A DNA stretch of 64,000 bases from Eledone cirrhosa (lineage: Eukaryota): assembly GCA_964016885.1 (NCBI GenBank), contig OZ024740.1, positions 161,448,001-161,512,000 of the forward strand. The letters run 5' to 3'. Below the pieces are notes generated by a model that saw nothing but the letters and a program-made list of their open reading frames with translations, was not told where the DNA came from and did no database searches. Each line of letters starts with the position of its first letter. Within the stretch, counting starts at the first letter, position 1. Below are positions 3,520 through 37,088 of this stretch, one piece after another. The position numbers and the translations under genes were made by a program.

Positions 3520-3800
3520 TTTGCCTAGAGAAAAAAAGGAAGTGCATGAGAGGCATATTCGCATTGATAAGGTCACAGGTTGTGACGAAAAGATTCTGTG
3601 CCGAAAGTAGTTAATTGCTTAGATTTTTAATTAATTAACTAATTAACTGATTATCTAATTGTTTAATAATAAAACTGAAGTGAAATAACAACCAACGTGT
3701 GCATTTTTATTGACAGTATTGTACGCTCAAAGTATAGCAGTACCTGTTTTGACTCAATTTTACATCAAGAATCCTGCAAAGCAAATACGAAATTGAGAAA
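3520..3800 (+). mobile_element. Diverged copy of HHR-bearing non-coding family A
   Basis: TTGATAA-G-GTCACA-GGT-TGTGAC-GAAA at 3564-3590. Downstream blocks (TGAAGTGAAA, CAAAGTATAGCA, AAGAATCCTGC) align by eye with 7380-7500. Confidence 0.6.
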
Positions 3801-5445
3801 CAAATATTGGTCCCGTACAATCCTGATGTATACATTTATTAAAGTGTAACATTAAGTGATCGTGTTGTCATCTTACGTATTTTACAGCTCCCCAGTTAAC
3901 TGAAGCCAAATCATCTTTATCTGCTCCACTGAAAATCTTTGCCATCAGTTGTTTAAATACTAATCAGCCCTGATCAAACATCATAGATAAAAGGCGTCCC
4001 AGTCGTGATCATCACTTACTTTTCGCAAGCAATAGGGACTCTAGGGCTACATTGTTTAATGTGTATTTCCATTTTTAAGATGGTAAGAGTATCATTTTAG
4101 AGCTATTTATCTGCTATTTCTCTCAAGCTAAACAACATAATAGCTAGTTCTTGCTTTATAGCCAACGCGTCAGACTTACGACATGTTTTTAATAAATATT
4201 TTATGAAATAAGTCAATAATTTACTATCTGCTGTTGTCGTGTTCCTGTCTAGCCATTATACTGCTTCCTTTTGACATAAGTAATATAGTGTACGTATCTT
4301 GACATAATGATTTCTAATTTAGGAGGAAGAGCAAAGTTGATTAATTCAACTGCAGTACATGATAATGTAAAGTGTCCTAACTCTTGATGGACTCGTGGGT
4401 ATTTCAAACCTCGTCGAAACTATCCCTCTCCAGGTCGTACCATGCCGATTTCTTCCAAAGAAAGAATCAATCTCAGTACTAGACTGCTAGCTTATTTATT
4501 GACTTTGAAAGACGGAATGGCAAAGTTGTCCCCCAAGGAATTTGAACTTAGAATCTAAAACGCTAGACAAATACTGTTATGGTCTTTTATCCGACACTCT
4601 CCCAATTCTGTCAATACATGCAGGCCTCTAACATCAATTCCTCCGGCTTCAGAACTCGGGAAAACTCACACCGGCGATGGATTGATGGAGTCGCTCCACA
4701 CCCACAACATGACACTACTTCAGTCATCACACCTTGCAACAGATAATCAACTTCACCTTGCCACGACACTATCCTAGTAGAAGCAAACGGAAAATATAAA
4801 TGCAACGTTATACGTCATCATATTGGATCAGCCAATTGAGGGACCTCTGTTTGATTCCTTGACTTGATAGAAATAGCAGCCAAAATCTTTTCGATTCAAA
4901 CGCCTCCATTTTTAAAGAAAGAGAAACATAGGATAATATAACCCTGGACACATTGTATCTAAAAACAAAAATGACAAGATGGTTAAAGATATCCTTAAAA
5001 TGGCTACGTAAGATTACAGCGACTGTAATTCCAATTCATATAAATTTTCAAATGAAATAGACAGAAACCACCTACCCTGCATGAAATAGTTAGAAGTATC
5101 TCTCGGATCCTAGTGTATCATTCCTATAACTTTTCTTAGTACACATTTTCCTTTTCTTACTAAACTTTGATAAAGGATTCCATCCGAATTGTCAGGTCCG
5201 TTCTTTACTTTCTATAAGATGTAAATATTTCTATTGCCACGCGTTGTCTTATTATTGCGCAAACGTTTTCTCACGTTTTCACATTTTTTTATCTGGTTTT
5301 AACTTTTATGCTTTAACTTTTGCTTCACCGTTCTTTTGTGGCAACCACACACACACACTCATACATATATATTATTTGTTTATGCCCACACACGCACACA
5401 CAAACACACACACACGTATATATATATATATAAATACATATATAA

Positions 5446-6369
5446 AACGAAGGAAGTGTGCTAAGGAACCAGGTGGTCGGAACGGCCAGAGCTCAGCCGT
5501 CGGGGTCCTGACACTTTTCCTATATATATATATATATCATCATCATCATCATCACCGTTTTACGTCCGTTCTTCCACGCTAGCATGGGTTAGACGGGTTG
5601 TCTTGTTGTGTGCAGTGTCTGGTCGGCTGACCATGCCTTGCTCATACAGGAACTGATCTGGCTTGATTTCTACAGCTGGATGCCCTTCCTAACACCAACC
5701 TCATTTACAGTGAGTGCTGGGTGCTTTTTCGTGGCGCCTACACGTCCACTTTACAGTGTGGGCTGGGTGCTTTTTTGCCGTGGCACCTCCACGACCACCT
5801 TGCGGTGGGGGGTGTGGGGGCATATTTTTTATATGCTTCAGCATGTACCCATGGGAGGTCGGGTACTCTGTATTACTGCGTGACGCCAGAAGTCACGGTC
5901 GTGTGTCATTGTCTTTGAGAGGTGTAATTGGGTAAGGTCGGCTTTTATCACCTCATCCCAGGTCATCTTGGGTCTCCCCACTCCGCGGTTTCCATCGACT
6001 TCTAGTGCTCTGCACCTTTTTATGCAGCTGTCATCCTTCATACGCATCACATGTCCATACCAGCGCAACCGCCTCTCCTGCACACAGCATTTGATTCCTC
6101 TTATGCTCAGTCTCTCTCTCAATTCATTTATGCTTTGTCGTTCACGTATATTACTGTTACACATCCATTGGAGCATGCAGGCTTCGTTTCTCTCTAATCT
6201 ACGTAAGTCTTCCACCTTCAGCGCCCAGGTCTCACTACCATGCAACATCGCTGTTCGGATACATGCATCATGGGGTTAAACATTTTCCTATTACCCACTC
6301 TACTACCCTAAGTATTGAGCACTCTGGTGCGTTATGGTCCATCTGGCTCCTTACCACACGTCCTTCGTT
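5446..6369 (+). mobile_element. Family C short element (HHR 3' half, inverted 5' end) interrupted by an RTE fragment
   Basis: 5446-5476 is an inverted copy of the family 3' end. 5480-5521 reads GAACGGC...GCCGTC-GGGGTCC. The element resumes at 6280 and ends CCTTCGTT-(TA)n at 6369. Homologous to 27024-27231. Confidence 0.65.
5537..6270 (-). mobile_element. 5'-truncated RTE-type LINE (C-terminal ORF fragment, 3' UTR, (ATG)n tail)
   Basis: ORF 5838-6248 has LHGSETW..., RRLRWYGHVMRM and GRPKMTW, typical of the RTE post-RT region. (CAT)n at 5537-5554 on + is the tail. Confidence 0.8.
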
Positions 6370-7167
6370 ATATATATATATATATATATACAAATATATG
6401 TATATGTATATATATATATACACACATATACATATATATATATTTATATATATATATATATATATATATATATATATATATATATATGAGTGTGTATATA
6501 TATAATAGTATTTATACTTATATATATATATATATAATCTATATACAGTTATGAATAAGAAAAGGTAACATTCTGTATTACCCAATTACCAGTAAGAAAA
6601 TTAGCTCAATGTAAATTATCAGATGTATTACAGCGCAGAAATACAAAATATAAAACAATCAAATGTTTGTTTAATGCATATTTAAACGAAGCCTGGATAA
6701 ATGACGAGATTGTCATGGTCATATCGATTTTGATTATAGGTTTACTCAATCAGGTTTGACATGGAAATAAATAGCAACATCAAGAACTTCATCGCCTACT
6801 ACTACTTTGAAGCAGTACATTAGGAACCCACGTAGTAATGAAATTAGCAAACATAAGACCTACATATGGATAACAAGCCTAAAGGATAATGTCAAAAATA
6901 CATGATGTGGAATCTGACATTTAGATTTATCGTAAGGTGTAAGATGAAACATAATTTTATTGCAAACTAATTACATCTTATCAAAAAAAAAAGGATAAGG
7001 TTTAATAAATGAGAATGGAGATTTAACATAAGGTTTTATTTAGATGAATCATTTACATAAAATATTATATATATATTACTTTTATGTAAATATATATATA
7101 TATATTATATATATATATATATATAATATATATATATATATATATATATATATATATATATATATAT

Positions 7168-7506
7168 ATATTGTTATACTTTGGGAGGGTCATGTTGCCA
7201 ATCTTGTTTCATGATGGCGTAGGACAGAACAAAGGAGAGGCACAAGAACAAAGAAAAGAATCCCCAGTCACTGAAGAGGTCACAGAATGTGTGACGAAAG
7301 AACTTTGACAATATATAAACAACCATCTGGTTGTGGAACCAACCAACCAACCGGAAATTTATAAATTTATTATAATAAATTGAAGTGAAAGCAACTGGTG
7401 CGTGTGTTTCTTATTGGCAACATGACCCTCCCAAAGTATAACAATATCGGTTTCAACACACGTTTTCAGATAAAGAATCTTGCTAAACAAATTCAGAAAC
7501 GAAATA
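7168..7506 (+). mobile_element. Family A HHR-bearing non-coding element in (TA)n, with a 35-bp inverted 5' end
   Basis: 7168-7202 is the reverse complement of 7413-7447. Flanked by (TA)n on both sides. Highly similar to 36775-37088. Confidence 0.8.
7267..7309 (+). ncRNA. Minimal type I hammerhead ribozyme motif
   Basis: GTCA-CTGAAGA-G-GTCACA-GAATG-TGTGAC-GAAA-GAAC-TT-TGAC: core CUGANGA and GAAA, 6-bp stem II, 4-bp stem I, very short stem III. Confidence 0.75.
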
Positions 7507-35740: not shown

Positions 35741-35816
35741 ACAGATTGACTTTGTTAGTTTCAGAAGATCCCGTTAAGGGTGAAAGCAGCGATTCTTTGC
35801 TTAAACTTTAATCTGT
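35741..35816 (+). ncRNA. Hammerhead-like motif with non-canonical core (mirror copy on minus strand at about 32074-32149)
   Basis: ACAGATT..AGTTT-CAGAAGA-T-CCC-GTTAA-GGG-T-GAAA-GCA..TGC-TT-AAACT..AATCTGT. Three stems are present, but U4 is A and the first stem II pair is U/U. Confidence 0.5.
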
Positions 35817-36164
35817 TATTTTAATAAATATATATATATATATATATATATATATATATATATATATATATATATATATATATATATATATATATATATA
35901 TTGCAAAGTTTTTGATATGGAATGTGTTTGTTGTTATTTTATTTGTGCATATATTTATTTATTTATATTTATAACAACAAACACATAAACACACACTAGG
36001 GAACAAATATTGAATACAAAAATAAAAACATACACTCAAACACGAACGCACACACTAAATATTAAACATATACGCAAACGCATGCGCAGAGACAGAGACA
36101 AGAATAAATAAATAAATAAATAAATAAATAAATAAATAAATAAATAAATAAATAAATAAATAAA

Positions 36165-36450
36165 ATTAAAATGGCGTAGGCATTACAATGCAACAGTAGG
36201 AAATATAATAGTACCACTGATGATGTCACAGATGTGTGACGAAAGAACTTTGATAGACTATATATATATATATTTGCATCTGTATTTCAAACCGTTGTCA
36301 ATCAATAATAAACATTGATTGCCTGATAAATTAACTATAGAGATATAAAAGATACAGAAGCGAAAACCAACCCAAACCAAACAGTGAGTGGGTTCTGTTA
36401 CTATTTCTGGCAATATTATAACAATATGATCCTCCCCAAGTATAACAATA
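36165..36450 (+). mobile_element. Family A subfamily copy with HHR at 36212-36255
   Basis: TACCA-CTGATGA-T-GTCACA-GATG-TGTGAC-GAAA-GAAC-TT-TGATA. Ends AAGTATAACAAT-(AT)n. Preceded by (TAAA)n. Confidence 0.8.
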
Positions 36451-36495
36451 TATATATATATATATATATATATATATATATATATATATATATAT

Positions 36496-37088
36496 ATATT
36501 GTTATACTTTGGGAGGGTCATGTTGCCAATAAGAAACACACGCACCAGTTGCTTTCACTTCAATTTAATTTAATATATATTTATAAATTTACAAATTTAT
36601 AAATTTCTGGTTGGTTGGTTGGTTCCACAACCAGATAGTTGTTTATATATATATAGTCATAGTTCTTTCGTCACACACTCTGTGACCTCTTCAGTGACTG
36701 GGGATTTCTTTCTTCGTTTCTGTGCCTTTCCTTTCTTCTATCCTACGCCATTTTGTTTGTGACACACAAACAAAATGGCGTAGGATAGAAGAAAGGAAAG
36801 GCACAGAAACGAAGAAAGAAATCCCCAGTCACTGAAGAGGTCACAGAGTGTGTGACGAAAGAACTATGACTATATATATATAAACAACTATCTGGTTGTG
36901 GAACCAACCAACCAACCAGAAATTTATAAATTTGTAAATTTATAAATATATATTAAATTAAATTGAAGTGAAAGCAACTGGTGCGTGTGTTTCTTATTGG
37001 CAACATGACCCTCCCAAAGTATAACAATATCGGTTTCAACACACGATTTCAGATAAAGAATCTTGCTAAACAAATTCAGAAACGAAAT
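36496..37088 (+). mobile_element. Family A element forming a 535-bp palindrome, with an HHR on both strands
   Basis: 36496-36761 is the reverse complement of 36765-37030, with loop ACA. HHR AGTCA-CTGAAGA-G-GTCACA-GAGTG-TGTGAC-GAAA-GAAC-TA-TGACT at 36827-36871, mirrored at 36655-36699. Confidence 0.9.

Follow-up and report, generated by a model that had tools for sequence, protein, structure and literature searches.

A 64,000-nucleotide stretch of the Eledone cirrhosa genome, referred to here as the window, contains many hammerhead ribozyme motifs and inverted duplications in or next to (TA)n tracts. The locus raises the question of what these elements are and how they came to lie head-to-head in (TA)n. 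An earlier note on this DNA proposed that they are non-coding hammerhead elements living beside separate Penelope-like element (PLE) helpers. Our answer, which we hold to be probable, is that they are PLE ends together with two retrozymes in (TA)n, inserted by PLE priming from both target strands, and that one retrozyme, family D, was copied from an ADAR-edited circular monomer.

Hammerhead motifs and Penelope-like families

Hammerheads were called with our own descriptor and by reading the sequence. Five CUGANGA/GAAA cores whose stem II has at least five Watson-Crick pairs lie in positions 3501-37100, exceeding what 40 block-wise dinucleotide shuffles gave (mean 0.025, maximum 1). Complete or nearly complete motifs of type I were found at 3564+, 7271+, 13676+, 14083-, 18043-, 36217+, 36694- and 36832+, with further type I motifs at 23252+, 23843+, 24805+, 32118-, 35759+ and about 7753-. 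The total of about 14 bears out the dozen or so hammerhead or hammerhead-like motifs claimed earlier. There were also 3' halves alone at 5496+, 27115- and about 10340+. The U3 cores described in the structure at 14508 read instead as chimaeras at family C junctions. No Rfam covariance-model hammerhead was among the 150 of 211 window matches listed, and Rfam covariance models did not match a hammerhead in the family D motif, so all calls depend on our descriptor and reading. Most isolated hammerheads folded no better than shuffles (z -1.7 to +0.3), and the core deviations U4A (family C) and GCAA (family H) may make those hammerheads inactive. The motif at 3564 had no second copy in the 1.19 Mb examined.

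3550..3605 (+): isolated U3:A8 hammerhead-like motif (3564)

On the evidence of their sequence, families A, B, C and G derive from autonomous PLEs of the Hydra and Neptune types, as 3' ends truncated on the 5' side. Families A-C have 5,206-19,839 exact core matches, and in longer copies all four families run without break into PLE ORFs. A single ORF with reverse transcriptase (RT) and GIY-YIG endonuclease (EN) was found for A, C and G. Partial tandems of the kind that form pLTRs were found for A (period 4,423), C (period 3,258) and G (read-through in L151). Their copies in the window are listed below together with ends of A', F and H, with site 1 and site 2 denoting two recurrent end positions described in the next section.

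7172..7503: family A fold-back, left arm to site 1, right arm to site 2, minimal hammerhead 7271
36500..37086: family A fold-back, left arm to site 1, right arm to site 2, hammerheads 36694 (-) and 36832 (+)
13845..14085 (-): truncated end of family A', a relative of A, hammerhead 14083
35902..36447: probable A' fold-back, short inverted tail end, then direct arm with hammerhead 36217 to site 1
5446..5523: insertion of family B type with TA on both flanks; some 30 nt of inverted tail end (site 2) are followed by a direct hammerhead 3' half that reaches site 1 (TTCCTAT)
6283..6370 (+): family B tail alone, to site 2, then (TA)n
10190..10387: B-like fold-back, diverged (67-73% identical to fold-backs of B); an inverted tail is followed by the 3' half of a hammerhead as far as site 1
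26914..26997 (+): older fragment of a family B tail
27023..27231: family B fold-back, left arm to site 2, right arm to site 1
14511..14752: two short family C fold-backs, mutually inverted around a TA/CA tract, 68/68 nt identical
24390..24865 (+): family C 5'-truncated end, site 1, hammerhead 24805
31971..35827: family C Hydra-type PLE, inverted arm of about 1.05 kb from site 2, truncated ORF 33170-34828 (+), 3' UTR, hammerhead 35759, site 1
17873..22641 (-): family G 5'-truncated Neptune-type PLE (Pfam RVT_1, GIY-YIG), U3:A8 minimal hammerhead 18043; its 3' terminus meets (TA)n at site 2
13441..13796 (+): family F 3' end, minimal hammerhead 13676, then (TA)n
7619..7815 (-): family H end resembling G, U3:A8 hammerhead variant with GCAA replacing GAAA

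Family A is the junction of 3' UTR and ORF start within a 4,423-bp tandem unit. Its 1,318-aa ORF has RT, a C-terminal GIY-YIG and an N-rich insert. CIDKKCITC and CTEGQC are present, but DKS and PKF replace DKG and GxKF; A is a Neptune or Nematis candidate by motifs rather than by a tree. One A' copy (L040) sits downstream of an ORF with 46% identity to A. The A' fold-back at 35902..36447, absent from the list in the earlier note, has a tail match of about 70% and moderate support. For family B, a Hydra-type ORF end lies upstream across a 1.3-kb 3' UTR at two loci; only the EN C-terminus of this ORF was seen (47-49% to C), and no tandem (pLTR) copy was found among the copies examined. Family C forms the end of a unit of 3,258 bp, whose ORF of roughly 700 aa has RT and GIY-YIG, RLRWRA, SDKTG and CNCRNRADC, one Cys only before YIG and no CCHH; these motifs, rather than an RT tree, place it within the definition of the Hydra clade. 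The RT and GIY-YIG of family G lie in frames 21319-22095 and 19769-21301, whose translations contain CGRSNCGTC, CKGC, ADKGS, KGLKF and a C-terminal EN; here too the assignment, to the Neptune clade as defined, is by motifs and not by a tree. No ORF was found for F or H among the copies examined.

The continuity with PLE ORFs refutes the description "non-coding" for A, B, C and G, and a population made up entirely of non-coding elements with separate helpers is very improbable. Copies without an ORF do predominate, as in the many family B fold-backs of only about 190-210 nt, and the description holds for D and E. The earlier note had itself named, as an outcome that would refute its proposal, that all families are ordinary PLE termini. 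A, B, C and G proved to be such termini and D and E did not, and the non-coding, TA-dwelling hammerheads of its headline are mostly ordinary PLE debris.

End sites in (TA)n and the pairing of arms

We examined loci mostly from the first 80 Mb of contig C1, chosen by exact patterns, a choice that favours young copies. Family ends abutted (TA)n in 362 of 420 cases, compared to 2.4% of random positions (14% of which are no more than 90 bp from (TA)5). In a content-blind 400 kb, 32 of 43 family ends did so. These counts of end sites and tracts support the (TA)n-associated PLE and retrozyme population that had been proposed. All nine inversions reported in the window exist and touch a tract, the supposed 90-bp gap at 10277 being the element's own inverted tail, although at 5446 the arms do not duplicate each other.

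Each family has two fixed end sites, each ending in 3-7 TA-alternating bases. The internal TA-rich points at which arms had been seen to join (TA)n (AACAATAT, TTCCTAT and CTAAATATAT) are genuine, recurrent end sites of this kind. All nine end sites with known continuation have at least three TA-alternating bases, expected by chance at 13-21% of positions. Tails are 60, 79, 88, 163, 68 and 90 nt by family. Site 1 was paired with site 2 in 154 of 157 fold-backs (including an earlier subset, 119 of 122), whereas independent ends would predict about half. The hallmark of EN+ PLEs, an inverted 5'-truncated copy with a tail at one end only, was found for A, B, C and G. TA microhomology, claimed for both junctions, is seen at the outer ones and not at the central joint, where there were overlaps of 1-8 nt in 44 of 119 cases and blunt joints in 11, the rest having filler, larger overlaps or unaligned sequence.

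We propose that a PLE protein cuts both (TA)n strands, and that each cut end would prime reverse transcription at a different fixed UA-rich site of one RNA. The two cDNAs would stop at variable lengths and be joined head-to-head, and the insertion would then have an inverted arm and, at one end alone, a tail. In L1 twin priming, both target strands prime on one RNA, giving inversion without duplication; in the families of the window the sites are fixed and each arm is a copy of the same upstream sequence. In vitro, Anolis Poseidon PAc cuts both target strands and starts reverse transcription at two internal RNA sites (PMC11167929). The families in the window would resemble PAc in having two internal start sites that bound the tail, cutting of both strands and an uncleaved RNA template. 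The PAc start sites are reported not to be homologous to the cut DNA (Frangieh et al. 2024), whereas here all nine sites with known continuation share 3-7 nt with (TA)n, and a rule of one of each site per insertion is not stated in the accessible text of that paper.

It is quite unlikely that the fold-backs arose instead from self-priming on an antisense template, a model proposed precisely for head-to-head palindromes (PMC3846280), or from DNA fold-back repair after insertion. Family A arms within an insertion do differ by only 1.6%, compared to 5.3% among copies at large, and 14511-14752 resembles a later inverted duplication. In 154/157 cases, however, the arms end at two distinct fixed sites, each having TA microhomology of its own, which would not be so for a fold-back copy of one arm. 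The longer arm may be either one (site 1 in 47 insertions, site 2 in 28), and in some insertions, such as 5446, the arms have no sequence overlap (negative lengths).

Creation or lengthening of (TA)n at insertion, by telomerase-like RT slippage on the start sites, is also unlikely. All start sites are UA-rich, and in the one informative filled and empty pair of paralogs the filled site (L036) has more microsatellite, 146 + 62 nt compared to 62 nt. Yet the empty site (L093) already holds a TA tract, at 30 of 346 ends a truncated 5' end lies against TA and no second arm was seen, and a (TA)n preference is published for Hydra and Naiad. That the palindromes are assembly or long-read chimaeras is so improbable as to be nearly negligible: their arms are unequal in length, have two different stereotyped end sites and are 1.6-5% diverged. 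In addition, contigs from public runs contain (TA)n loose ends at D site 1 (X3 and X4) and D site 2 (X3) and one inverted loose end, at 23354.

Retrozyme families D and E

Families D (591 nt) and E (about 530 nt) are, as we read them, non-coding tandem retrozymes with one hammerhead per unit; their longest stop-free frames in tandem are 86 and 58 aa.

22756..24001: insertion of retrozyme D with (TA)n on both flanks; an inverted arm of 164 nt from site 2 is followed by about 1.8 direct units of 591 nt, which end at site 1
23252..23339 (+): type I hammerhead of family D with U3:A8; stem II is extended and stem III palindromic, and GUC cleavage is predicted after 23334; a second copy lies at 23843-23930
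27253..27476: fold-back of family E, its left arm ending at site 2 and its right arm at site 1

Consecutive tandem units of D each have a complete type I hammerhead, whose three helices are paired in 97% of cells across eight variants; its covariation, a single compensatory pair, does not beat shuffles (113/500). The family is abundant (4,021 exact 31-mers; 6,433 hammerhead-pattern matches), with arms reaching 5 + 3 units. In a redundant set of 200 occurrences, the D hammerhead was never joined to a PLE ORF, and the final 700 nt of A, B, C and G, the only PLE families compared, gave no significant plus-strand match to D. The E fold-back, the inversion listed under 27328, has no hammerhead in this copy. 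The family E hammerhead (CUGAUGA) lies upstream of this piece, in longer copies; one copy, L250, has tandem continuation and one complete hammerhead, and none of those examined has two. Insertions of D and E obey the same two-site end rule as the PLE families, which points to PLE machinery as their carrier.

Variants common to all units on both inverted arms were frequent in D, and across 30 two-strand insertions no variant was limited to one arm's units. On the sense strand these shared variants were A>G in 29 cases and T>C in 6 (A 132, T 212 columns), with 16 and 2 in a held-out set of 20 insertions. Changes private to a unit were A>G in 9 and T>C in 22 (Fisher p = 1.4e-5). Polarised by an outgroup, the shared variants were A>G 22, G>A 6, C>T 5 and T>C 5 (17 of 62 unpolarised). 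One insertion had 7 A>G among 10 shared variants, 6 of them within 92 nt. The arms of A, B, C and G did not show the bias. The D circle is predicted to fold at -173 kcal/mol, compared to -135 ± 6 for mononucleotide shuffles.

The A>G pattern is likely a trace of edited circular RNA copied back into the genome, and is best explained if one ADAR-edited circle was the template for rolling-circle reverse transcription that both target strands primed. This template would be one monomer that hammerhead cleavage and ligation had made circular; after editing by ADAR it would be copied round several times from each primer, so that all units on both arms would inherit the same A>G changes. Mobilisation of D by PLEs from linear multimeric transcripts of homogeneous arrays is possible, though doubtful; A>G would then come from RT error, transcription-associated mutation or selection for A-U to G-U. 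In keeping with this, the predicted circle has A-U pairs at 15 of the 22 polarised A>G sites, where G-U preserves the fold. The ADAR neighbour preference is a trend only and not significant (5' G in 3/29 vs 28/130), and shared variants can be inherited; those of D may come from earlier rounds. Against this reading, C>T, tolerated equally in G-C pairs, is not raised, unit-private changes show no A>G excess, six A>G cluster within 92 nt in one insertion, and the autonomous families, with a similar copying enzyme, lack the bias. Homogeneous arrays would themselves require a monomer bottleneck at some step. We give an even chance to the fuller reading, that D is a fossil of a hammerhead-processed RNA circle that underwent A-to-I editing and was then copied in rolling-circle fashion by a PLE RT, starting on both strands of a cut (TA)n tract, and that the two-site rule is how EN+ PLEs integrate in general.

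Relation to known elements and significance

The (TA)n preference, inverted arms, tails, U3-A8 pair and extra nucleotide after A9 are already published. The earlier note knew of no description in cephalopods, but the supplement of Craig et al. 2021 (PMC8557442) lists Octopus PLEs that prefer (TA)n and have a ctgaagag core, and the Hydra clade of that paper includes Hydra-1_Obim of Octopus bimaculoides. Family C, and B by its ORF end, resemble that clade in the C-terminal GIY-YIG, RWR for RWK, DKT, CxCX5C linker, (TA)n insertion and extra hammerhead base after A9, before GAA. They differ in their tails (79-88 nt compared to 30-40), C in its U4A core and 3,258-bp unit (published units are generally under 3 kb), and B in its 1.3-kb 3' UTR and its hammerhead with U3:A8 or C3/A8 and a long stem II. 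G and A resemble Neptune and Nematis in the C-terminal EN, CX4CX2C linker, CCHH-type motif and microsatellite bias, but A differs in its 1,318 aa, N-rich insert and DKS and PKF for DKG and GxKF.

Metazoan non-LTR retrozyme units were given as 150-450 nt (Cervera and de la Pena 2020, PMC7229834) and later as 51-972 nt (Li et al. 2026, bioRxiv 10.64898/2026.07.22.740005), in the text available for each; D and E exceed the first range and fall within the second. As those texts describe such retrozymes, D and E resemble them in being non-coding tandem units that coexist with PLEs and have one type I hammerhead each (in E, probably), and D in a GC content under 45%. They differ in being inserted in (TA)n as head-to-head fold-backs of several units that carry PLE tails, and D in the strand-biased A>G common to units. 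In the same texts, PLE mobilisation is argued from co-occurrence and pLTR homology, with local tandem expansion also invoked. About 21 of 57 families in the available text of Li et al. 2026 are homologous to a PLE pLTR, unlike D, for which no pLTR relative was detected among A, B, C and G.

The two-site pairing rule, its observance by D and E and the shared A>G variants of D go further than what is published. In the accessible text of PMC8557442, PMC7229834 and Li et al. 2026, two questions are left open: how PLEs come to form head-to-head repeats tailed at a single end, and whether it is by PLE-driven circle copying that retrozymes move. The Eledone cirrhosa genome contains thousands of young insertions that follow one junction rule almost without exception, together with a defined substrate of 591 nt, and both questions are therefore directly testable. 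If the A>G signal is due to ADAR, RNA editing would have become heritable DNA change and, if the fossil reading of D is true, would have been written into the germ-line genome thousands of times.

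Hammerhead families and PLE open reading frames

Comparison of the window, which spans 161,448,001-161,512,000 of contig C1, with itself recovered all nine of the inversions named in the earlier note. Using our own descriptor, we found five hammerhead cores whose stem II had five or more Watson-Crick pairs in 3501-37100, where 40 shuffles gave 0.025; counting variants read from the sequence brought the total to approximately 14 complete motifs and three halves. Rfam reported no hammerhead on the motif of family D, and none among the 150 of 211 window matches listed. Strict detection gave 7 family ends in the 64-kb window and 20 in an arbitrary 360 kb; TA tracts numbered 3.2 per kb in the window versus 2.0. 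The window is thus above average in both, yet unexceptional.

We counted families A, B, C and D across the source assembly (3.0 Gb) as exact matches to a core pattern, with reversed-pattern controls giving zero. There were 5,206 matches for A, 13,338 for B, 19,839 for C and 4,021 for D. In its longer copies, A continues into a tandem unit of 4,423 bp whose ORF (1,318 aa) encodes reverse transcriptase and GIY-YIG, and the A pieces in the window are the 3' UTR, hammerhead and first codons of that unit. Family C forms the terminus of a Hydra-type unit of 3,258 bp, and a truncated copy of that unit's ORF is present in the window (33170-34828, 97% identical). A Hydra-type ORF end, the only part of the ORF recovered for B, precedes B in two loci. 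An ORF of family G is present in the window, and one copy of A' lies downstream of an A-like ORF. Family comparisons over the fetched loci linked neither F, H nor the isolated U3:A8 motif at 3550..3605 (+) to any ORF. The description of these families as non-coding hammerhead elements therefore fails for A, B, C and G, which run into the ORFs of Penelope-like elements (PLEs), and holds for D and E.

A long insert rich in Asn lies close to the N-terminus of the A ORF (loci L031:6120-9998 and L032:543-4529) and resembles the N-rich inserts reported for Penelope elements of rotifers. Other features were as follows.

Additional features of the window
6539-6659 and 9617-9740: further TA-flanked family with inverted copies, also at loci L162:5050-5450, L067, L179 and L139
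within 18310-19274: 350-nt internal tandem, 2.8 copies, in the 3' UTR of PLE G
24454-24724: 140-nt tandem in the 3' UTR of C
24890-25947: element of ~1 kb, terminal inverted repeats with 34-nt subrepeats; relative in locus L183
38048-41305 (-), 42787-46437 and 47669-61372: LINE-type ORFs outside the present finding; among them are an open frame of 1,216 aa and three related copies adjoining (AAT)n tracts

The element at 24890-25947 was considered as a PLE and rejected on account of its terminal inverted repeats; it is probably a non-autonomous DNA transposon.

Insertion junctions and the pairing of two sites

Junctions were collected from 1.19 Mb of sequence, including overlaps, and ends were deduplicated. 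A (TA)n tract adjoined 362 of 420 family ends compared to 925 of 38,127 random positions, and 32 of 43 ends in the arbitrary 400 kb alone. Each family has two fixed end sites, site 1 and site 2.

Ends located at the two sites, by family
A: 82/93
B: 134/153
C: 67/100
D: 31/36
G: 32/38

At all nine end sites with a known continuation, the terminal 3-7 bases alternate T and A (chance per site, 13-21%), giving microhomology to the tract. The earlier note had proposed TA microhomology at both junctions, but the central joint is not TA-based.

An inverted arm was present at about 12 of the 20 ends in the arbitrary set. Fold-backs, insertions with two inverted arms, were scored if they were flanked by TA on both sides and free of long internal TA tracts. 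Site 1 was paired with site 2 in 119 of 122, and in 154 of 157 when later loci were included. Among the three exceptions, one (L161) starts with a tail remnant, one (L094/L234) joins two subfamilies, and one (L170) looks genuine. Nine D rows that appeared to use the same site twice were artefacts of multi-unit arms. A search for empty sites of 120 insertions gave ten matches, of which nine were simple repeats or the ends of PLEs nearby and carried no information, and stricter flanks gave none among 44 insertions. In the single usable empty paralog, the TA tract was already present.

In B fold-backs (e.g. 27023-27231), both arms often end close to the apex of hammerhead stem II, clustering 45-63 nt upstream of site 1; arms of C cluster at 51-76 nt from site 1, often near a TTC-A-GAA quasi-palindrome. 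As the loci had been picked with patterns from the same region, we offer no explanation for the clustering; RNA structure may set the point at which two cDNAs join. In an 8-unit D insertion (L248, contig C1, ~50.5987 Mb), the central joint contains an 11-nt piece of D repeated in tandem ~7 times, suggesting that slippage recurred as the arms were joined. Insertions of C, A' and A are chained through common (TA)n tracts at 31971-37086, and similar chains recur in many loci. At 14511-14752, two copies of an entire short C fold-back lie in opposite orientation on either side of a TA/CA tract (68/68 nt, same joint), which suggests either that the fold-back was duplicated later as an inverted copy or that the assembly is locally at fault.

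Families D and E and their shared variants

Family D is a tandem of 591-nt units, each with one complete hammerhead and no frame longer than 86 aa. Of 200 hammerhead occurrences, a redundant set, not one was linked to a PLE ORF. A subfamily ~80% identical is likewise tandem. The largest D insertion has five inverted and three direct units. Among 30 two-strand insertions, all 26 with both ends scored paired site 1 with site 2. The hammerhead cleavage site was not a truncation hot spot among the D arm lengths, as measured in pattern-selected loci. The hairpin at 27328 belongs to E, an older non-coding tandem of ~530 nt; its window pattern matched only itself, and a DNA search then gave 81 matches.

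In public sequencing runs, contigs had loose (TA)n ends at 23414 (X3 and X4, one study) and at 23579 (X3). Closed D contigs of 620-621 nt (X1 and X6) were discarded as evidence for circles, since a tandem array fits equally well. At least half of the D words (query 22990-23570) were present in 13 public runs with several coded organism labels; this could mean that D is widely distributed, that it spread recently, or that other samples contain octopod material.

In the 30 two-strand insertions, variants common to both arms were frequent, and none was restricted to the units of one arm. Distinct shared variants in 47 multi-unit insertions comprised 29 A>G, 12 G>A, 6 T>C, 6 C>T and 9 others. The excess of A>G over T>C was found in the first 27 insertions (20 versus 6) and in 20 fetched later (16 versus 2), whereas changes private to a unit were 9 A>G versus 22 T>C. 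Because polarity based on the majority misassigned several variants, we used the 80% subfamily as an outgroup, which polarised 45 of 62. These included 22 A>G, 6 G>A, 5 C>T and 5 T>C (p = 8e-6, A>G against T>C); those found in a single insertion included 15 A>G and 3 each of G>A, C>T and T>C. No comparable bias occurred in the arms of A, B, C or G (A, for example, had 22 A>G over 3,353 A columns and 11 T>C over 1,600 T columns). We lean towards ADAR editing as the source of the A>G changes in D, although the neighbour preference of A>G was not significant, which counts against it. Covariation in D was not significant.

A model for insertion and its relation to known elements

It is likely that a PLE cuts both strands of (TA)n and primes at two sites of one RNA. 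The PLE protein would make both cuts, and each cut 3' end would pair with UAU or AUAU at one of the two sites on a single uncleaved molecule. The two cDNAs would then extend, halt at variable lengths and become joined head-to-head. For D, judging from the sequences, it seems reasonably probable that a circular monomer serves as template and is copied in repeated rounds.

Several of these elements have precedents. Inverted truncated copies, often with the tail at one end only, a preference for (TA)n, and Octopus Hydra and Naiad families were described by Craig et al. 2021 (PMC8557442), and two internal start sites with cleavage of both strands and no target homology by Frangieh et al. 2024 (PMC11167929). 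Cervera and de la Pena 2020 (PMC7229834) proposed that PLEs act as carriers and that circles give rise to tandem cDNA, and named editing as one possible cause of heterogeneity in the RNA. Homology to pLTRs was added by Li et al. 2026 (bioRxiv 10.64898/2026.07.22.740005). What the earlier note observed was largely real, and its interpretation was partly right and mostly already known. Judged by titles and the start of abstracts, the accessible open literature yielded no paper on twin priming in PLEs, on junction signatures of retrozymes or on edited retrozymes fixed in DNA, and the works cited above gave no quantified site pairing rule, no PLE junction signatures on retrozymes and no edits fixed across units, although subscription journals, Repbase and the Li supplements may bear on this.

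The value of the finding lies in the site pairing rule and in families D and E, non-coding tandem repeats and putative retrozymes that very probably use PLE machinery.
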